The notes below the pieces were generated by a model, which saw only the letters and a program-made list of their open reading frames with translations, was not told where the DNA came from and made no database searches. Shown in pieces: positions 35,655-52,522 of a stretch of DNA of 64,000 bases. The position numbers and the translations under genes were made by a program. Source of the stretch: an uncultured Actinomycetes bacterium (GTDB lineage Bacteria > Actinomycetota > Thermoleophilia > RBG-16-64-13); contig CAWJDT010000001.1 of NCBI GenBank assembly GCA_963841735.1, positions 352,001-416,000 on the forward strand, written 5' to 3'. How positions within the stretch are numbered: position 1 is the stretch's first letter; the number at the start of each line of letters is the position of its first letter.

Positions 35655-36630
35655 TCACTCCTGGTGCGCCAAAAACTCCAACGCTTCCTGCGCGGTAGGC
35701 AGAGCGGGGATGGCGCCTTTGCGGGTGCAGGTCAGCGCACCCACCGCCACGGCATACCGCAGCGCCGAGCCTACCACCTCGGGGCTGACTCCGGCCAGGG
35801 AACCGAGACGTTTCCATTCGGGCAGCAGGCGTGTGATCATCGCCGCCACAAAGCCGTCGCCGGCGCCGGTGGTCTCGATCACCTCCACCCCAAAGGCGGG
35901 CTGCTCGATCCAGAAGTCGCCGTTAGTGGCGATCGCGCCGCGCTCACCCCGGCTGATCACCAGCAGTTGCACGCCCTGCGCCAGCACGACCTCGGCCCCG
36001 CGATGCAGGTCGGTCTCACCGGTGGCCACCAGCCACTCTTCTTCGCTGATCTTCGCTAGTTGGCAATGGCGAAAGCCATCCCTGATGACAGCCTGGGCCT
36101 GTTCCACCGTAGGCCAGAGCGTCGGGCGGTAGTTGGGGTCATAGCTGATCATCAACCCGTTCGCCCGAGCCATTTCCTAGAGCCTTGCGCTGCGCCGAGG
36201 CGATCGGCTCCTCGGTGAACCCTATCGAGCCGAAGTGGAAGCAACGCACCCCTTCGAGCAGCTCGGAACCGATCTCCGCCGGCGCAAGCAACATGTCAGC
36301 CCCAGGGTTGCGGTAGAAACACAGATCCTTGTGTCCGTCGTCCCACACCGCCACAAAGACCGAGGTCGTGCGTGCACGCTGGTCGACCAGCAGAACGCGG
36401 GTGTCCACGCCGTCGGCCTCCAGGCTCTGCCGCAGGTAGACCCCAAACGGATCGTCTCCTACCTTGCCGACGAACCCGGCGGAAAGGCCCAGGCGTTGCA
36501 GTGCCACAGCCACATTGGCCGGAGCCCCGCCGGGAGCCTTGATGAACCCCGGCGCATCCGCCAAAGAGACATTCGCCTGAGTCGAGACGAATTCGACCAG
36601 CAGCTCTCCCATGCAGACGACTTCAGGCAT
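35655..36630 (-). CDS. PfkB family sugar kinase (fructokinase-like), frameshift near 36175
   Basis: GGAPANVA, GKVGDDPFG in one frame; DPNYRP, TTGAGDGF in the next. Confidence 0.85.
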
Positions 36631-37006
36631 GGTCGGCCCTGGGCCGATACTCCACGTGGGGCAGACCCAAGAAGTGAGCGTCCTGCGTCCAAAGCGTCGC
36701 ATTCTCTGAGCGCGCGGTTGCCAGGATGATGGAGTCGGCCATGGCAAGTCCTGTTTCGAGCGATAGCCGGGCGGCTTCGAGCGCAAGGCTTGCCGTGAGA
36801 TCTACCACCCGCCCCTGTACCATCACCGCCGCGGCATCGAGCGCGGTCGCCTCGTCCTTGATCTGGCGGATGCGCTTGAAGACCTCATAAACTGTCAGCG
36901 ACGGCACGACCGCGGCCTCCGGCGACTCGATGACGCCGGCGAACTCCGACGCGTTCTCACCGTCGGCGAAGTACTCCAACCAGGCCGAGGAGTCGACTAC
37001 GTTCAC
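36623..37006 (-). CDS. vapC: VapC (PIN) toxin
   Basis: VVDSSAWLEY, YEVF, MADSIILATA, WTQDAHF. Confidence 0.9.
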   Translation of the reverse strand: MNVVDSSAWLEYFADGENASEFAGVIESPEAAVVPSLTVYEVFKRIRQIKDEATALDAAAVMVQGRVVDLTASLALEAARLSLETGLAMADSIILATARSENATLWTQDAHFLGLPHVEYRPRADHA

Positions 37007-37212
37007 CCGCGGTCGTTCTCGTCGCGCATGACGCGCGTGTCGAGCCCGCGCAGCACTCCACGCAACTCGCTGGCCAGGCGCACCGGCAGGAACTCGATGC
37101 GATCGCCGTACGCGAGAGCCTGGATCTTCTGACCAGGCACTAGGCCGAGCTGCTCACGGATGGCCTTGGGGATAACAACCTGGAACTTGGGCGAAATGGT
37201 GACAGTCTCCAC
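37003..37212 (-). CDS. AbrB/MazE-type antitoxin
   Basis: GTG start with GAAGGAGG RBS; TISPKFQVVIPKAIRE.LGL.PG. Confidence 0.88.
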   Translation of the reverse strand: METVTISPKFQVVIPKAIREQLGLVPGQKIQALAYGDRIEFLPVRLASELRGVLRGLDTRVMRDENDRG

Positions 37213-37387
37213 CGACAGACCTCCTTCGTCATACGGATAGTCTATCGATGGCGTCGCCGTCTTGCAATGTGGCTCGGGCTGAATAGAAAGAACCCTATGG
37301 ATCACAGCAGGTACTGCCCGAGAGTCTGCGCCCTGAAGCGCTAGAGACTCTGGTACTTCAGTCTGAACTTGGCACCCGTTAGAGCTT

Positions 37388-38192
37388 CTACACCCGCCCC
37401 ACCGCCTTGAAGAACGTGTAGCAGAACGTACCGTCGTCTTCAGCCGTACGATACAGGTCTCTGATGCCCTGGTCGAAAACGGCAGCATCCACGAGACCCT
37501 CCGCGATGGCCGTCTCACGCACGCCCTCGATCATAGCCGTGAACGTCTTTTTGGTGAACCCGTCCACTAACTGCGGCCTGCTCGCATCGACGTACACCAT
37601 GCGCGGCGACACCCGGACCTCCCCATAGCCGGCGGCCGCCAGCAGCGGATACAACGACCTCCCGATAAGTGCGTCGCCGCCCGCGCGCGACTGCAGCTCG
37701 ATGAGGCACCCGATGGCGATATGAGCAGCTTCGCTCTCGGGGTAGAAGTAGGCAGAACCGTGGTCGCCTTCGATCACCGTGAGGGTGCCGCCTGGCCGCA
37801 ACAATCCCTTGAGCTTCGCCAGGGCCGATCCCGGCTCTCGCAGATGCTCCAGGACGAAGCAGACGAACACGTGGTCAAACGATGCCGGTTCAAAAGACAG
37901 AGCGAAGATGTCACCCTGCTGGAACCGCACGTTGGAGAGACCCGCTGCCGTGACTTTGCGTTCGGCTTCCGCGAGCGACGCCTGGGAGATGTCGACGGCC
38001 ACGATGAAGGCTCCCGGACTGTTGGCGGCCAGGGTCACCGTCTGCGCGCCGACTCCACAGCCGGCCTCCAGAACGCGGCAGCCCGCCGGGAAGACGGTGT
38101 CCGCATGCAGCAGCTCGGCCAGAGTGGCCGCCTGGTCCTGCAGACGCATGCTGCTCCCGGGAGTCGTAGCCGTGGACGTACTTGTGGGTCAT
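37388..38192 (-). CDS. Class I SAM-dependent methyltransferase (5' frameshift); possible gene cassette
   Basis: MTHKYVHGY then RLQDQA in another frame; VLEAGCGVG; follows attC R' GTTAGAC, and a CTCTAAC lies just after its stop. Confidence 0.85.
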
Positions 38193-38279
38193 GAGTCTAT
38201 CTTTTCAGAATCTGGAATTTTTTGGACGGAGTCTTGTGGCCAACTGGGTGTGAGTCTCGGTCGGGGCCCGTCGGAGACT

Positions 38280-38373
38280 GTCTAACGACTGCAGCCGGTC
38301 AGCCGCGCCCGTTGGCCATGGTAAGCCATGCAGTAGGCAACGCAGGATGTCGGCTGCAGGCGCTGGTTAGAAC
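38280..38373 (-). repeat. attC site
   Basis: Minus strand GTTCTAAC-CAGCGCCTGCAGCCGAC...GCGCGGCTGACCGGCTGCAGTC-GTTAGAC, imperfect palindrome ~10 bp after the toxin stop. Confidence 0.8.
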
Positions 38374-38383
38374 TACGCTGCGT

Positions 38384-38680
38384 TCAACCACGATCGCCCC
38401 AGTAGCCAGGGCGCCGCCTGTGATGCGCGACGGCCGAGACATGCACTGCCATACCGTCGAACCAGTACAGGATTGAATAGGGAAATCGGCTGACAACGCG
38501 CTTGCGTGTCTCGCCCAGCAGAATCGGGAATGCGTTTGGATTGTCGGCTACATCAAGGAGTGCAGCCTGCGCAGCATCGAGAAACGCGGTCCCGAGCCCG
38601 AGCTGTTCAAGGTCGTAGAAATCGGCTGCCTCGTTCAGTTCGCGGAAGGCACCAGGCTCGAACAGCACCTCATGGGTCAT
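38384..38680 (-). CDS. RelE/ParE family toxin (cassette)
   Basis: A..EL.EA..FY, RFPYSILY, AVAHHRRRPGYW. Confidence 0.9.
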   Translation of the reverse strand: MTHEVLFEPGAFRELNEAADFYDLEQLGLGTAFLDAAQAALLDVADNPNAFPILLGETRKRVVSRFPYSILYWFDGMAVHVSAVAHHRRRPGYWGDRG

Positions 38681-38901
38681 GCGCGAGCAGCCCGCGCCTT
38701 CGCGAACACCTCGTCCATTGGGATGGGGATTACCCTGCCACCTTGGCCGTCCGCACGTCGGCGCTCAGCTTCCTCGAGCCACAGACGCTCAACCTCGGGC
38801 TCGGGTAGATCATCCAGGCTCTCTAGAAGCTCCCGGGCCAGATCCGCTCGTATCGAAGGATCGAGCCGCAGAGCCTCACGCTTGAGTTCGTCGATAGTCA
38901 T
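38677..38901 (-). CDS. Addiction module antitoxin (TIGR02574-like)
   Basis: RADLARELLESLD, WLEEAERR. Confidence 0.88.
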   Translation of the reverse strand: MTIDELKREALRLDPSIRADLARELLESLDDLPEPEVERLWLEEAERRRADGQGGRVIPIPMDEVFAKARAARA

Positions 38902-38978
38902 GGCATCTCACCTCGCAACGGAACCTACGCACCCCACAATGATACCGCCGACGACTGGCGCTGACACTCCAACGTTAG

Positions 38979-39040
38979 TTCCAACGATTCAGCGCGTCAG
39001 CCGCGCCCGTTGGCCATGGTACTCCATGCAATAGACAACG
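38979..39040 (-). repeat. Truncated attC (3' half only)
   Basis: Near-identical to 38298-38342 (GTCAGCCGCGCCCGTTGGCCATGGTA..CCATGCA); ends in GTTGGAA on the minus strand; no R'' arm. Confidence 0.7.
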
Positions 39041-39100
39041 CCGGCAGAAGAGAACGTCCCCGTCAGAGAAGGTGTTGCGATTCACACTTGAACTCACAAT

Positions 39101-39160
39101 GGCTAACGTCGAGCCGATCAGCTGCCAGCTTCGCTGGTCTGCTGCACCGGCTTGTTAGGC
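39101..39160 (-). repeat. attC site (60 bp, 59-be type)
   Basis: GCCTAAC-AAGCCGGTGCAGCAGACCAGCGAAGCTGGCAGCTGATCGGCTCGAC-GTTAGCC. Confidence 0.88.
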
Positions 39161-39399
39161 ATCGGTTGCCTATCTCCTTCGTCAGGCTCAACGTCGGGCA
39201 CCTTGCCCATCGCACGCTCGAACCTACCACGGTCGCCACGGGCCGCACGCTCCTGAAGATAGTCTACGGTCATTAGCGCCGACATCTTCTCGGCTAGCGC
39301 TGTAGTGATCAACTGGTTGATGGATACGTCCTCAGACTTGGCAAGTTCACGCGCCTTTCTATGGAGTGACTCCGGCAGACGTAGACTGATGGTGCTCAT
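39118..39399 (-). CDS. HicB-like ribbon-helix-helix antitoxin (cassette)
   Basis: MSTISLRLPESLH...SINQLI..ALAEK; C-terminus reads into attC (MPNKPVQQT). Confidence 0.85.
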   Translation of the reverse strand: MSTISLRLPESLHRKARELAKSEDVSINQLITTALAEKMSALMTVDYLQERAARGDRGRFERAMGKVPDVEPDEGDRQPMPNKPVQQTSEAGS

Positions 39400-39820
39400 G
39401 ACCGACCTCCGATCCTTCCCAAGAACTCGCCGGGGGTGACCGCCTCTATCCCGAAGCGCTCGACCTCCACGAAGTCCTTCATGTTGTGCGTGACGATGAT
39501 GCCGCATCCCGCCTCGACGGCCAGTTCGAGCACATGGTCATCGCGCGCATCTCGGAGGACCGGCCGCCAGAGGAAGTGGATCTCTTGTAGATGGGCGACG
39601 CTACACAAGTAGTCGATGACATCGTCGACTTCCTCAGGCTTGAGCCCCGTCGCCTCGGGCATGCGCTTCGCGGCATCCTCATACTCGACCACCAATGGGA
39701 CCGAGAGAGTGATCTCGAACCGCGTCCCTCCGACCAGCATCAGAAGCCGATGCGAGGCGCCCCGGCGTGACCGAAGTGCAGAGATGAAAACGCTAGTGTC
39801 GATGACAACGCGTGGACCCA
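39396..39820 (-). CDS. PIN-domain toxin (cassette)
   Basis: VVIDTSV, SVPL..EYE, WRP.LRD..DDHVLELAV, VTHN.KDF. Confidence 0.88.
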
Positions 39821-39875
39821 TAGCGGTATCGTATAAGATACCAGCCCTTGAGTCAACACGGGCTGACCCCCGTAT

Positions 39876-40040
39876 GCCTAACAATAGTTATCTGGTCTGT
39901 GTAACTCCACCGACACAACATCTGGTTGTCGGCATAACTCCGGCTGCGATTCTCAAGACAGCCCCCCTGGTCGGCATACCGAGCGGTTTCTGAGACCAAG
40001 ACGCCCGCGCGATCTTGGGTTTATGCAGACTGTATGTGCC
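39876..40040 (-). other. attI-like region, locus A
   Basis: Core GTTAGGC (39882-39876) with no attC arm upstream; repeats GTTACACAGAC, TATGCCGAC x2 and TATGCAGAC between the core and the intI relic. Confidence 0.6.
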
Positions 40041-40043
40041 GCC

Positions 40044-40191
40044 CTACAACCTGTCAAACAGGCTGCTGCGGACTCACTGGCCGCCGTGGGCGAGCACGGG
40101 GGGGGTTACGCACGGTGGTGAGCACGTCCTTGTAGCCGAGGAGCTCCTGTGTGGTCCGGGTATTGCAGCCCGCCTCCAGCAGATCAGTAGC
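40044..40191 (-). pseudogene. intI: Integron integrase C-terminal relic (locus A)
   Basis: Manual translation with frameshifts: ATDLLEAGCNTRTTQELLGYKDVLTT...VLAHGGQ*VRS..FDRL* vs IntI [44 protein letters not shown].L*. Confidence 0.8.
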
Positions 40192-40208
40192 ACTTCACCG
40201 CGCGTCAG

Positions 40209-40226
40209 GGGGCGCCTACCGGCGCC
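40209..40226 (-). terminator. Hairpin terminator, degenerate copy of the 42452 and 51976 hairpins
   Basis: GGCGCC-loop-GGCGCC with a similar flank. Confidence 0.45.
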
Positions 40227-40358
40227 GAAGGGAACAGCACAAGATCTTGCCAAATCGTCGACGGTCGCCGTCGCGCCCCGAGTGGCCACCCCTGCAACCC
40301 GGCTCGCGGTGCAACCGCCCCAGCCCCGTTCTACAACGGCGCCGAGAGCCGTCTCGGC

Positions 40359-49288: not shown

Positions 49289-49321
49289 TCCTCCTCCTTG
49301 CACTGCGTAGTACTTCGACCC

Positions 49322-49386
49322 AGCTAGCGTTCGTCCGCGGCTTCACCGGCAAGCGAAGCGCCGTCCGATGCAAGCCGCTGTTGCGA
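49322..49386 (-). repeat. attC site (degenerate)
   Basis: TCGCAAC-AGCGGCTTGCATCGGACGGCGCTTCGCTTGCCGGTGAAGCCGCGGACGAAC-GCTAGCT. Confidence 0.72.
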
Positions 49387-49396
49387 AAGCCAGCAT

Positions 49397-49819
49397 CTAC
49401 TGCTGCTCGGCCCTGAGGGCGGCCAGGAACTCAGCAGGGCTGAACACCGGCAGTTCGGAAGCTGCGAAACCCTTTGCATCCCGCGTCACGATCGCCACTG
49501 CTCCGGACCTGCGCGCTGCCTCATGGAGCACGGCATCCTCGAAGTCCCCGAAGCCACTATCGAGGGCATCCCGCAACACGTCGCGGTCCACACAGGCCAC
49601 GTCGAAGATCATGAGCAACTTGCGAATGTGCTCCGTAGCGACCGAGGTTCCGACCGCCTTGGATGCAAGACAGTTGATGGTCGTCACAGTCGTAGAGCAG
49701 ATGACTCCTTCGAGACGACCGTCATCCACCAAGCTCATGACCTGCTCAGCCGCGCCGACATAGGGCTCACGGGCGAGCAGATGGTCAAGCACCACGTTCG
49801 TATCAAGAAGCACCTTCAT
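49397..49819 (-). CDS. PIN-domain toxin (cassette)
   Basis: MKVLLDTNVVLD, DFEDAV, IVTRD..GF. Confidence 0.9.
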   Translation of the reverse strand: MKVLLDTNVVLDHLLAREPYVGAAEQVMSLVDDGRLEGVICSTTVTTINCLASKAVGTSVATEHIRKLLMIFDVACVDRDVLRDALDSGFGDFEDAVLHEAARRSGAVAIVTRDAKGFAASELPVFSPAEFLAALRAEQQ

Positions 49820-50052
49820 AGATACTTCTCTTCAAGATGACGCTTGTAGTCGGATGCGTCCAAGCCAGAGCCGGCTAGAACGCCGCGAAGTGACCGGACG
49901 CGAGGAGTCGCGTCAATATCACCAGCCTCGGTCTCGATGAGGGCGAAGAAGTCCGCGACCAGTTGCGAGATGGATCTGCCCGACTCCGCCGAGTGGCGCT
50001 TGGCGCTCGTGATCAGCCTATTGTCAAGACGAAGTGTGAGTTTGGTGTTCAT
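49816..50052 (-). CDS. DUF6364-like RHH antitoxin
   Basis: MNTKLTLRLD..LI..AK, TPRVRSLRG, Y..HLEEKY. Confidence 0.85.
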   Translation of the reverse strand: MNTKLTLRLDNRLITSAKRHSAESGRSISQLVADFFALIETEAGDIDATPRVRSLRGVLAGSGLDASDYKRHLEEKYL

Positions 50053-50169
50053 AGAATCCCTCCTGACGTATACCACTGAGCCATATTATACGTCACTGCG
50101 GTTCCGAGGCAACACGACGGCCGTGGTCTTCCCGACAATGCTTGCCCAGTATGAATAACTCGACCGCCG

Positions 50170-50286
50170 CAGCACCTCGGTGTCTGTGTAACAACGGTCT
50201 CGAGCTTCAAGACACCCCCACAATGCGACGTTCCGCGTGCTTTCGCGGCGGTTGCCGCCTCCCGTAGCGTCGTGAATATGCAGACT
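50170..50286 (-). other. attI-like region, locus B (homologous to 39890-40031)
   Basis: Shares GTCTGTGTAAC, TCAAGACA.CCCC and TATGCAGACT in the same order as locus A. Confidence 0.55.
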
Positions 50287-50303
50287 TCCATGAGAAGCCG
50301 GCC

Positions 50304-50650
50304 GGTGTCAAGAGCGATTCTTGGGTTGCTTCTTCCTCCTCTGCTCGGTTTCTATCATCCCTCTTCCGCCGCGAAGAGCCAAGACCACGGCCACGCTTCC
50401 ATTCGCACTTTTTGTCGGGAACCTATGGCGGGACCCGGTGCACGTTGGGGTCCGGCCGGGGGAAGCGCTGCTATCTGTATAGCGGCCTTGGGGACGGCAC
50501 CGGGTTGGTGTCGTTCTGTACGGCCGAGTCTGTGTGCGCAGTCGCTTTCACCCTGGGCGGTTGGTCTTTTTGCTGGTCTCCTGCGATGGGTTCACCCGCC
50601 GGTCTTCCTTGGTTATCGATCCTTCCCGTCGGCATCTCTCATCTTCACCG
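50304..50650 (-). ncRNA. Putative bridge/seekRNA of the IS1111-type element
   Basis: Non-coding region 3' of tnp; stem/internal loop at 50463-50547 whose two unpaired strands match the target flanks; RNA ends unknown. Confidence 0.7.
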
Positions 50651-50653
50651 CTC

Positions 50654-51736
50654 CTAGGTGGTGGGCGCAGTCTCGCCGCGGAGCCGGACGTTGCGCAGTG
50701 GCTCGTAGACCTCACCGGTCCTCCAGAGGTGCAGGAGGAGCACCGAGAGCTTGCGGGCCACCGCCACTACCGCTCGCTTCTTGCCCCGCTTGCCGCCCTG
50801 CGCGGCCAAGGCAAGACCCCAACGCCTGAGATCCGAGTCCGGGCCGAAGGGCCCGAGGATGTAGTGGGCGGCGCTCACGAGGAGCCAGCGCAGGTGCTCG
50901 TCCCCGGCTTTGGTGATGCGCAGCTGAGGCTCCAGGGAACCGGAGCTTGCCTGCCGGGGCCTGAGGCCGAGATACGAGCCCACCGAGCGGCACTTGGGGA
51001 AGCGCTCGGGATCTTCCACGGTAAGGACATAGACTGTGGCCGTAAGCGTGCCCACGCCGGGCACCTGGGAGAGAAGCGCGGTCTCTGGGTAGCGCTCCTT
51101 GGCCATGTCTTCGATCTTCTGATCGAGAGCGCGGATCTCATCGGAGATGTTCTGGATGACGGTGAGGACCGGAGCCAGGGCGGGAGCGAGCTCCTCGGGG
51201 ACACACGGCCCGGCCTTTTGGGCAAAGACGTCGCTCGCGCAGGTGGGCAGGCGGCTGCCCAAGGACTTCGTGCAGCCGCGGGCATGACTGATCAGACGGG
51301 TGCGAGCCCTGACCAGGGCATTGCGACTGCGCACAAGCGCGAGGTCGGACTGGGTCTCGGCTCTCCGATGGGTGAGGGGGGCCAGCAGCTCCGGGTCCAG
51401 ACGACCGACCCGGGCCAGGTACTCGGCGTCCACCCGGTCTGACTTCGAGTCGTTCTGGTAGATGAAGCGGAGCTTGCGGGGATTGGCCACGACAACGTCG
51501 TGTCCAAGTTCGGAAAGCAGACGGCTAACCCAGGGGGAGTGGGTGCCGGCCTCGATCACGATGCGTAGCGGATCCGCCCCGGAGAAGCGGCGACGCAAGG
51601 CTTCCGGCTTGGTCGTCACCCGGCCCTCCTCGGTCACCTCGCCCGCTTCGTCGAGCACACAGATCTGACAACAACGGTCGCTCAGATCGAGACCCACGGT
51701 CACCTTCGCTTGCTCGGTGGTGCTAGCATCGCACAT
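50654..51736 (-). CDS. IS110-family transposase/recombinase
   Basis: DEDD: VGLDLS, VIEAG, KSDRVDA; VPGVG, YLGL.P....SG (catalytic Ser), A.VAVARKL. Confidence 0.95.
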   Translation of the reverse strand: MCDASTTEQAKVTVGLDLSDRCCQICVLDEAGEVTEEGRVTTKPEALRRRFSGADPLRIVIEAGTHSPWVSRLLSELGHDVVVANPRKLRFIYQNDSKSDRVDAEYLARVGRLDPELLAPLTHRRAETQSDLALVRSRNALVRARTRLISHARGCTKSLGSRLPTCASDVFAQKAGPCVPEELAPALAPVLTVIQNISDEIRALDQKIEDMAKERYPETALLSQVPGVGTLTATVYVLTVEDPERFPKCRSVGSYLGLRPRQASSGSLEPQLRITKAGDEHLRWLLVSAAHYILGPFGPDSDLRRWGLALAAQGGKRGKKRAVVAVARKLSVLLLHLWRTGEVYEPLRNVRLRGETAPTT

Positions 51737-51838
51737 GGCTGGCCTCCTTCATTTGGGCCCACGAGCCCGACTCTGATTGGGGACCTCACGGTACTCCGGG
51801 GGAGGTCGGCCTTCTCATCCCATCTGTATATGCCCGCC

Positions 51839-51922
51839 CTACAGGGAGTCAAGCGGGCTGGGCACGCCTTAGCCGCCTCGGTCGTAGATCATGGTCGTGT
51901 AAACGCTTTCGTGTCCCAGAAC
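51839..51922 (-). pseudogene. intI: Integron integrase C-terminal relic (locus B)
   Basis: Manual translation VLGHESVYTTMIY-DRGG*GVPSPLDSL* matches the IntI C-terminus with a short deletion and a nonsense codon. Confidence 0.8.
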
Positions 51923-51967
51923 CTGTGGCGACCTACGTGCTTGACGATGCGCTCCGCGCCCCCGGAG

Positions 51968-51994
51968 GAAAGGAAGGGGCGCCTTTCGGCGCCC
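51968..51994 (-). terminator. Rho-independent terminator
   Basis: Minus strand GGGCGCC-GAAA-GGCGCCCC-TTCCTTTC. Confidence 0.65.
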
Positions 51995-52075
51995 AAAGGA
52001 AACGAATCAGGATTTGCCCAGAGCCTCGGCGGTAGTCGTCACGCCCAGAGTCGCGGCCCTACAGCTCGGCCGCGC

Positions 52076-52522
52076 TCACCGTGCAGCCGCCGCGCCCTCT
52101 ACGACCACGCGTTGATTCGCGCTCTGCTTCCGCCACGACCATGCGTAGCCCATGACGAACAACATGGTGGCGATCTCGACGATCGCGAAGAAGGCGTAGA
52201 AGAGAGTCACTCCGCCTTCGGTCAGCGACCAGGTGAGAAGTGCTATGTGCACGATGGCGGCGCCGATGTTGGCCCGGCGATTCCACACATCGGGCAACAC
52301 CCGCGACAGAAGCACCATGGCTATGGATGTCTCCATGATCACGGCGAAGAAGAGTATGGCCCCGGCGCTCATATCCACCGTCCCTTTCATCGCCGGATCG
52401 AAGGAGAGGCCGAAGATATCGGCGTAGAGGTAGTTGAGAACCATGAACACCCATAGCGTCGAGAGCATCACCCTTCTGTCTTTCCACACCGAACGCCTGT
52501 TGCCTGAGTCGCTGCTTGCCAT
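52076..52522 (-). CDS. DUF6326-like membrane protein
   Basis: LSTLWVFMVLNYLYADI, NRRANI. Confidence 0.75.
   Translation of the reverse strand: MASSDSGNRRSVWKDRRVMLSTLWVFMVLNYLYADIFGLSFDPAMKGTVDMSAGAILFFAVIMETSIAMVLLSRVLPDVWNRRANIGAAIVHIALLTWSLTEGGVTLFYAFFAIVEIATMLFVMGYAWSWRKQSANQRVVVEGAAAAR

Follow-up and report, generated by a model that had tools for sequence, protein, structure and literature searches.

Insertion sequences (IS) of the IS1111 family are defined by subterminal inverted repeats of usually 11 to 13 bp with a 7-bp left and a 3-bp right extension, by a long non-coding region lying downstream of tnp, the gene for the transposase, and by a GL-P----SG motif (Siddiquee 2024, PMC11187229). 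The RNA-guided mechanism of the family was published in 2024. Experiments have found the non-coding RNA, termed seekRNA or bridge RNA, to be required and reprogrammable, and natural reprogramming has been described for ISEc11 and ISXne4. In IS1111 seekRNAs, the stretch complementary to the top strand of the target comes first, 5' of the one complementary to the bottom strand, with an overlap at the core. A further study places bridge RNAs in the right end of 93% of IS1111 elements, with donor nucleotides often in a multiloop and one donor guide pairing discontiguously (PMC11208160). Here, we describe an IS1111-family element in a 64,000-nucleotide stretch of the genome of an uncultured Actinomycetes bacterium (Thermoleophilia, RBG-16-64-13; assembly GCA_963841735.1, contig CAWJDT010000001.1, positions 352,001 to 416,000), referred to as the window. 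This autonomous element very probably uses RNA guides that steer it to a palindrome behind integron integrase (intI) genes.

With both copies of its CT core, read directly at 50285-86 and 51824-25, the element spans window positions 50285 to 51825 on the minus strand, and its boundaries are sharp and identical in five genomic copies. An initial annotation, made from the letters of the DNA, had set these boundaries correctly; its span includes both CT copies, and the element proper measures 1539 bp. The other coordinates and strings in that annotation, for the repeats, the stems and the short motifs CAGACU, UAUACAG and AUGGAAG discussed below, all agree with our direct reading. The transposase gene (50654..51736, minus strand) encodes 360 amino acids, with a DEDD/RuvC-like N-terminal domain (DEDD_Tnp_IS110, PF01548; E 2e-17) and a Transposase_20 C-terminal domain (PF02371; E 1.5e-18) in Pfam. 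Its product scores 217.7 bits against the NCBIfam model NF033542, "IS110 family RNA-guided transposase" (cut-off 140), covering profile positions 1-342 of 343. The C-terminal IS1111 motif GL-P----S(t)G is present as GLRPRQASSG, and its G, L, P, S and G are invariant in the transposase alignment.

The ends of the element follow the family plan. In transposase sense the layout is AGATGGG-[repeat]...[repeat]-GGA, and the inverted repeat arms, ATGAGAAG... and ...CTTCTCAT, stand 3 nt and 7 nt from the ends when one CT is counted in the element. The arms share 8 bp perfectly, and a hand alignment of the two matches 13 of 15 positions with one gap. At the transposase-upstream end, the repeat reads GGTCGGCCTTCTCAT on the plus strand (51804..51818, read directly) and is followed immediately by the 7-nt extension CCCATCT (51819-51825, core included). 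At the transposase-downstream end, the repeat ATGAGAAGCCGGCC (plus strand; 50290..50303, read directly and compared with relatives) is immediately preceded by the 3-nt extension TCC (50287-89). The non-coding stretch downstream of tnp extends over 369 nt (50285-50653), compared with 89 nt upstream (51737-51825). There is no target duplication: two empty paralogous sites and the sites of three relatives carry a single CT/AG.

We collected related elements from 40 related genomes, from one genome per species (the best 80 of 228 relatives) and from metagenome contigs (39 loci). Motifs allowed the element ends to be recognised at 59 of 85 related loci; there, the ends are nearly constant, AGATGGG-ATGAGAAGGCC ... 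GGCCTTCTCAT-GGA followed by AG, with one-base variants, and the flanks vary from one element to the next. Inverted repeat arms found by a best-repeat scan measure 9-17 bp in relatives. Domains, NF033542 score, extensions, repeats, motif and downstream non-coding region thus agree on the IS1111-type identity first proposed, and the element is an ordinary, well-formed member of the family. It has in common with ISEc11, ISPa11, ISKpn4 and ISPst6 a DEDD transposase, subterminal repeats, 7- and 3-nt extensions, a long region downstream of tnp, a single orientation and the lack of a target duplication (Siddiquee 2024, PMC11187229). Unlike them, it targets a palindrome just behind intI in Actinomycetota integrons, and it is known from sequence alone. 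It also differs from plasmid-borne family members, since a collection of 72,556 plasmid records held distant transposases only, at most 37% identical to that of the window.

A search of the source assembly (2.82 Mb in 8 contigs) by BLAST and exact end matching found five copies, with at most 2 differences from the window copy over 1541 positions. All five lie in the site TTAT[G/A]CAGA-CT-GTATATG, in one orientation; they follow an integron integrase stop codon at a distance of about 10 nt, and none lies at an unrelated site. In the window, the flanks are TATGCAGA (50277..50284) and GTATATG (51826-51832), so that the rejoined target forms the near-palindrome TATGCAGA-CT-GTATATG. Relatedness among the flanks of the five copies extends for about 150 bp to one side of the element and for 75 bp to the other, at 74-86% identity in the BLAST-aligned stretches. 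Given that the copies themselves have at most 2 differences, the insertions were independent: the flanks are old paralogous sequences that a young element entered five times, and the pattern marks the element as a recently active insertion sequence. A search with the pattern of the rejoined site identified two unoccupied paralogues, each with a single CT. One, TTATGCAGACTGTATGTG (one mismatch), lies in the window at 40021..40038; the other is elsewhere on the contig and adjoins an intI-like 3' end.

These data also bear on the alternative that a larger repeated unit, comprising the intI 3' end, the IS and the attI recombination site, was duplicated, in which case the five insertions would not reflect targeted transposition and the agreement of guides with flanks would carry no information on targeting. 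Similarity between the loci does run about 150 bp and 75 bp past the element, and the copies at about 812 kb of contig 1 (C1) and on contig 5 (C5) share sequence even past attI. Yet the flanks are far older than the nearly identical elements between them, the two paralogous sites are empty with a single CT, and in 3 of 29 loci from relatives an uninterrupted site follows intI. In addition, relatives with other guides occupy other, guide-matching sites. We therefore consider duplication of such a unit highly improbable.

The predicted guide RNA and its targets

The predicted seekRNA or bridge RNA region was delimited as a 200-nt comparison stretch (50378..50577, minus strand) from an alignment of 38 relatives, a consensus fold and pair counts. 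Within it, a target-binding internal loop with its stems (50463..50547, minus strand) is predicted by the minimum-free-energy fold, the consensus fold, pair counts and cross-pairing. In RNA sense, the outer stem pairs AAGCGACUGC (50547-50538) with GCAGCGCUU (50471-50463), with one bulged A, and the inner stem pairs CGGCC (50526-22) with GGCCG (50487-83). The putative 5' guide, ACACAGACU at 50535-50527, holds CAGACU (50532-27), and the putative 3' guide is UAUACAG at 50481-75. Written in transposase sense, the target reads CATATAC-AG-TCTGCATA. The strand ACACAGACU has its complement in AGTCTG of the top strand and UAUACAG has its own in CTGTATA of the bottom strand, with an overlap at the core. 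Both guides match the flanks of all five genomic copies, and their order agrees with the published IS1111 order. The internal loop, first described in the initial annotation, is reproduced unaided by the minimum-free-energy fold of the non-coding region. In both empty sites, the base that would face the outermost position of the 3' guide is not the one present at the occupied sites.

Comparison with relatives supports the predicted scaffold. From the 38 aligned regions, RNAalifold returns three helices with 17 pairs: the outer stem, the inner stem and a third. Paired cells amount to 97.1%, compared with 88.0% in shuffles and 24-51% when slid. Cells with changes on both sides number 72 against 17.9 expected in shuffles, and nine pairs are changed in this way. 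Covariation in these 38 relatives is thus what supports the scaffold, as read from the alignment.

We then compared guides with flanks by counting exact matches among the 35 of the 38 aligned elements whose flanks reach 8 nt or more on each side. For the 3' loop, 31 of 35 elements show a match of 6 nt or more to their own left flank plus core, and 4 of 1180 pairings show one to a foreign flank; at 7 nt or more, foreign left flanks are matched once in 1180. For the 5' loop, a match of 6 nt or more to the complement of the element's core plus right flank is present in 17 of 35 elements, compared with 16 of 1186 foreign pairings, and several of the misses pair at a one-base offset, which the exact-match count ignores. 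Guide-flank matches exceed chance. Both the agreement between loop and target noted at the outset and the proposed behaviour of homologs, with a covarying scaffold and guides that track their own targets, have therefore held.

It could still be argued that the matches between loop and flank are coincidental, helped by a near-palindromic target, and that the protein alone chooses the site. The matches in the window element are short (6 and 7 nt), and a palindromic target doubles the chance of a match. However, across a clade with many targets, these same two loop positions agree with the flanks of the element they belong to and very rarely with foreign ones, and the published experiments find the non-coding RNA required and reprogrammable in this family. 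Coincidence is accordingly a very unlikely explanation, and we return to a guide RNA that reads the target.

Changes among the closest relatives illustrate this relationship. In the five closest non-coding regions the stems are kept and the loops change together with the target; L020, L025, L094 and L096 are examples of this among the closest relatives. L020 has the loops GAGCAGCCU and UCUAGCAG and occupies gcggctagc|AG|gctgctg, and L094 has the loops UAGCAGCCU and CCUAAGAG and occupies ctctaag|AG|gctgctg. L093, a metagenome contig of 1759 nt whose transposase is 89% identical to that of the window element, provides an independent further example of an insertion behind an integrase. Its left flank encodes ...IQEFLGHKEV..LIYTHVLNR.. 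and, after a frameshift, ..VRSPLDG-stop; it thus holds the 3' end of another integron integrase. At 16 nt from this intI stop codon lies the IS, in TTTATAC-AG-TCTGCCC, and matches of 8 and 7 nt link the L093 loops AGGCAGACU and CUAUACAG to the flanks of that element. Among the relatives that come next in similarity (78-87% identical), both the loops and the targets are different. By analogy with ISEc11 and ISXne4, the integron target would have arisen by natural reprogramming.

Some related loci show irregularities of their own. The guides of L014 predict a target like that of the window element, and its left flank mismatches the 3' guide; around 2110-2410 of this locus, the element directly abuts a fragment of another IS110-family transposase gene, and the locus is probably rearranged. 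L038 has two copies of the downstream end 51 nt apart (3908 and 3959), as if the end had been duplicated or a second, truncated copy abutted the first. In L003, L026, L027 and L062, AA follows the downstream end instead of AG. The donor-guide 6-mer of L062 likewise ends in AA (UAGAAA), and the core dinucleotide itself may covary with the RNA.

The putative donor-binding part of the RNA (50396..50450, minus strand) was located by own-end 7-mer counts and a stem with compensatory changes. AUGGAAG (50402-50396), already singled out as a match to the donor junction, equals the last five element bases plus the core, and the exact own-end 7-mer occurs in the non-coding region of 48 of 52 non-redundant elements. 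Elements ending in ...CAUGGA carry AUGGAAG and those ending in ...CAUAGA carry AUAGAAG, a G/A covariation. A stem of UGCAC (50442-38) with GUGCG (50408-04), which shows compensatory changes, encloses a variable hairpin. Just 5' of this stem, CCCCAAC (50450-50444) is probably the second (5') donor guide, for which the initial annotation had no candidate. The motif at this position follows nucleotides 4-7 of the left end: AGATGAG is accompanied by CUCAUC, and the left ends AGGTAAG, AGATAAG and AGATAAA by UUAC, CUUA and UUUA.

The core dinucleotide of IS621 is CT, as the initial annotation stated. IS621 recombination uses a core dinucleotide, and the predicted RNA of the window element resembles that of IS621 and the IS110 group in its internal loop, in its two guides for opposite strands around the core, in a second, donor-specific part and in one putative donor guide that would pair discontiguously (Durrant 2024, PMC11208160). 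Unlike IS621 as described there, the window element has its RNA at the other element end, the order of its guides with respect to the strands is reversed, its core is AG in transposase sense (CT on the other strand), its repeats are long, and its putative donor guides flank a stem-hairpin rather than a simple loop.

The target within the integron platform

The gene next to the insertions was identified from the copy on contig 6 (C6), where the transposase-upstream flank contains an intact gene of 320 amino acids ending in ...GVRSPLDAL. Its product scores 455.7 bits against the integron integrase model TIGR02249 (cut-off 265). A second intact integrase gene (80% identical) adjoins another copy, and the other loci are remnants by tblastn. 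Overall, the genome contains at least 7 intI 3' ends and 2 intact integrase genes, and 5 of 7 platforms have remnants only. In the window, the integrase sequence beside the IS (51842..51945, minus strand) comprises the last ~36 codons with an internal deletion, and its stop codon lies about 10 nt from the IS. It matches residues 285-320 by tblastn at 51937-51842 (55.6% identity, E 3e-5), and its blastn alignment with the intact C6 gene falls into two pieces separated by a gap. A site just after the integrase stop codon, as originally proposed, is therefore what we find in all five copies and in L093; the window integrase itself is a remnant rather than a gene. A second intI remnant (40111..40191, minus strand; tblastn residues 274-300, 70% identity) adjoins the empty site in the window.

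Alignment of the sequence after the integrase stop codon in the five occupied loci, the empty site and five relatives reveals a common order. In integrase sense, the stop codon is followed by ~8 nt, TATACAGTCTGCATAA, ~100 nt, GGAGTTATGCAGACA, ~20 nt, GGAGTTACACAGACTGGATAA and ATTGTTAG|GC. Two direct GTTAYRCAGAC boxes thus lie downstream of the target, followed by TTGTTAG|GC, where similarity between loci stops. Cassette-like toxin-antitoxin genes begin after this break. A single strand carries the integrase, the transposase and the small toxin-antitoxin-like genes that lie beyond the IS. Two direct boxes, a GTTRRRY crossover box and the break in similarity fit what attI followed by differing cassettes should look like. 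The attI1 site has two direct IntI-binding repeats, on which this comparison of boxes is based; attI and attC calls were made manually. In the window, the intI-to-attI spacer and attI-like boxes of the occupied locus (50132..50284, minus strand) were assigned by alignment with the four other copies and relatives, and the crossover box is degenerate (GTCGGGA). The second integron remnant retains an uninterrupted attI-like region (39876..40020) that reads TCTGCATAA..., GGAGTTATGCCGACA, GGAGTTACACAGACCA, ATTGTTAGGC on the minus strand.

The right half of the IS target repeats, in inverted form, the direct GTTATGCAGAC boxes found repeatedly in attI. The proposed location of the target between intI and attI is upheld by a site that follows the intI stop codon and lies upstream of the attI boxes, with no cassette before it; as judged from this alignment, it appears to hold for a co-oriented ("inverted integrase") type of integron. 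The target may be better described as the outermost attI box itself. In the inverted integrase group, integrase and cassettes share one orientation. This group has been recognised in the integron literature (PMC3575428).

Given the inverted boxes, the target could alternatively be one end of an attC-like folded site, with the element a functional analogue of the IS1111-attC group (ISPst6, ISKpn4, ISPa25). On that reading, TCTGCATAAC beside the IS and GTTATGCAGA about 105 nt further on would represent an imperfect palindrome's R''-like and R'-like ends. In several copies the boxes complement each other exactly, and a single-strand DNA fold of the empty site pairs them; however, this fold is no better than those of shuffled sequences (z -1.54; 16 of 200 fold as well). 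A cassette gene between intI and the site is absent, and the position is fixed at 10-16 nt after the intI stop codon in the five occupied sites, the empty site at 40021-38 and L093, with the second empty site likewise adjoining an intI-like 3' end. Further, the partner box is one of two direct repeats, arranged like the IntI-binding repeats of attI1. IS1111-attC elements occur on plasmids, and nothing in the 72,556 plasmid records comes closer to the transposase than the 37% identity given above. An attC-like site is thus unlikely, and a target at the intI-proximal edge of attI remains our reading.

The window element resembles the IS1111-attC group, as that group is reported (Tetu & Holmes 2008; Post & Hall 2009), in being integron-specialised, in its single orientation and in using an inverted repeat like that of a recombination site. 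Unlike the group, it occupies no cassette attC. Its place, past the intI stop codon and ahead of the attI boxes, separates intI from attI, and no cassette boundary is split.

Integrases of this kind were found in 43 of 301 genomes of the same class, and 29 loci were inspected. In many of the 29, the stop codon is followed at a distance of a few to about 35 nt by a related palindrome, TTAYRCAG-W-CTGCATAW, and three (L133, L134 and L152) contain the exact TATACAGTCTG, uninterrupted. None of the 29 inspected integrase loci has an IS in the palindrome site. A LexA box and a dif-like Xer site were considered for the palindrome and dropped, as the half-site arrangement of these sites does not fit.

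Proposed mechanism and its implications

We propose that tnp and the downstream non-coding region would be transcribed together from a promoter assembled at the junction of an excised circle, in which the ends would abut as ...CTTCTCATGGA-AG-ATGGGATGAG.... TTGACA (50306..50311, minus strand) lies 25 nt from the element end, and TTGAC stands 25-26 nt from the end in 30 of 52 relatives. In the abutted circle, TTGACA would stand 17 nt before a junction-spanning GAAGAT. Because junction promoters have been reported for the family (Siddiquee 2024, PMC11187229), TTGACA is probably the -35 box of a promoter completed across the circle junction.

The non-coding region would give rise to a seekRNA or bridge RNA with two guide-bearing parts. 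In the target part, ACACAGACU would pair with the transposase-sense target strand (AG+TCTG...) and UAUACAG with the opposite strand (CTGTATA), overlapping at the AG/CT core. In the donor part, the abutted ends would be bound on one strand by AUGGAAG (...CATGGA-AG) and on the other, in a discontinuous pairing, by CCCCAAC (AG-ATGGG...). Recombination by the ribonucleoprotein would then insert the circle, in a single orientation and with no duplication of the target. The site selected would be the near-palindrome TATACAG-T-CTGCATAA, 10-16 nt behind the intI stop codon at the intI-proximal edge of an attI region whose boxes are presumably bound by IntI.

Several observations weigh against this interpretation. 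The element's own 5' guide matches 6 contiguous nucleotides of the commonest target, and its outer positions mismatch in 4 of the 5 sites. The fold energy of the non-coding region is unremarkable (z -1.47; 8 of 100 shuffles fold as well), and a search of 49900-52300 against Rfam at a permissive threshold returned only a chance match to a long non-coding RNA (E = 4). CCCCAAC is complementary to AGATGGG at 5 of 7 positions, and its core-facing part does not pair. The transposase open reading frame from the first ATG encodes 360 amino acids, compared with the 330-350 quoted for the IS1111 family; the NF033542 profile match begins at residue 13, and a start codon later than the first ATG is possible. 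A crude attC scan at a loose setting gave 8 candidate rows (4 sites, both strands) compared with 0-10 in 10 shuffles, and at strict settings it gave no candidates; the scan thus lends no statistical support to attC sites. An integrase lies within 2.5 kb of none of the 80 genome-derived related loci (tblastn of IntI, E <= 1e-5), so the integron target is confined to a narrow lineage consisting of the window element and L093.

None of the public sequencing runs contained half of the sampled words, and the four that were compared are Logan contigs of relatives with 90-99% likeness. The runs thus yielded assembled contigs of relatives only; contigs from RNA libraries (X18) overlap 50281-50571, which is no proof of transcription. 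No circle junction was seen in these contigs, where none would be expected. Three listed contig joints were disregarded on account of their short sides (24-39 nt).

A more speculative, and on balance doubtful, extension is that the window element and L093 form a lineage specialised in parasitising integron platforms. The guides of this lineage would have been selected to read the conserved palindrome of the IntI-binding box, and insertion would uncouple intI from attI and the cassettes and add to integron decay. If so, the IS would find in the conserved palindrome a safe landing site that recurs in every integron of the clade.

IS4321 and IS5075 are reportedly IS1111 members that home to a conserved functional end of another mobile system; the window element differs from them in targeting the integron platform. 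The mechanism proposed here is already known and the target fits the known working of the family; we did not find an IS1111 or bridge-RNA element at intI/attI described in the literature searched, which did not extend to the supplements (target logos of >300 ISfinder entries; Durrant Supplementary Table 5), Tetu & Holmes 2008 or Post & Hall 2009. The case would extend IS1111 targets within integrons from cassette attC sites to the platform itself. Its setting is the little-studied "inverted integrase" integrons of soil Actinomycetota, where the element stands between integrase and recombination site, and it points to a conserved palindrome behind intI in these integrons. About 35-50 related elements with one RNA scaffold and many guide-target pairs, in which close relatives differ almost only in their loops, form a natural series. 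Together with the two natural near-target empty sites, this series can inform rules of guide length and mismatch tolerance for IS1111-type recombinases.

Other features of the integron platforms

The window contains two decayed integron platforms about 10 kb apart, at 36600-40200 and 49300-52000. Each consists of an intI 3' remnant and attI-like boxes followed by toxin-antitoxin-type genes of the PIN, DUF6364 and RHH/ParE-like kinds, on the minus strand. Two attC-like sites were read by hand on the minus strand of the first platform. The site at 38280-38372 (93 nt) runs TTCTAAC-CAGCGCCTGCAGCCG...CGGCTGCAGTC-GTTAGAC, and the site at 39101-39160 (60 nt) runs GCCTAAC...GTTAGCC. Two intergenic spaces of the array share a 55-nt direct repeat (38292-38346 and 38990-39044), the copies being 87% identical.

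The occupied loci at ~812 kb of C1 and ~150 kb of C5 are identical in sequence past the attI crossover box. Apparently, they have the same first cassette despite differing integrase sides (intact and remnant). In the attI regions of the occupied loci at C1:812256, C1:1357699 and position 168747 on the minus strand of C5, the second direct box with its 3' neighbour (TTGGGCAGACTGGATAAG) is a look-alike of the IS target with 4 mismatches. In some loci, the second direct box also holds a perfect 9-nt match to the 5' guide (ACACAGACT), with no insertion seen there.

Finally, a short hairpin-containing repeat (around GGGGCGCCTTTCGGCGCCC) is present at 51970-52035, at 40209-40319 and at other places on C1. 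The repeat adjoins both intI remnants of the window, lies ~65 nt from the second empty site outside it, and may be REP-like or terminator-like.

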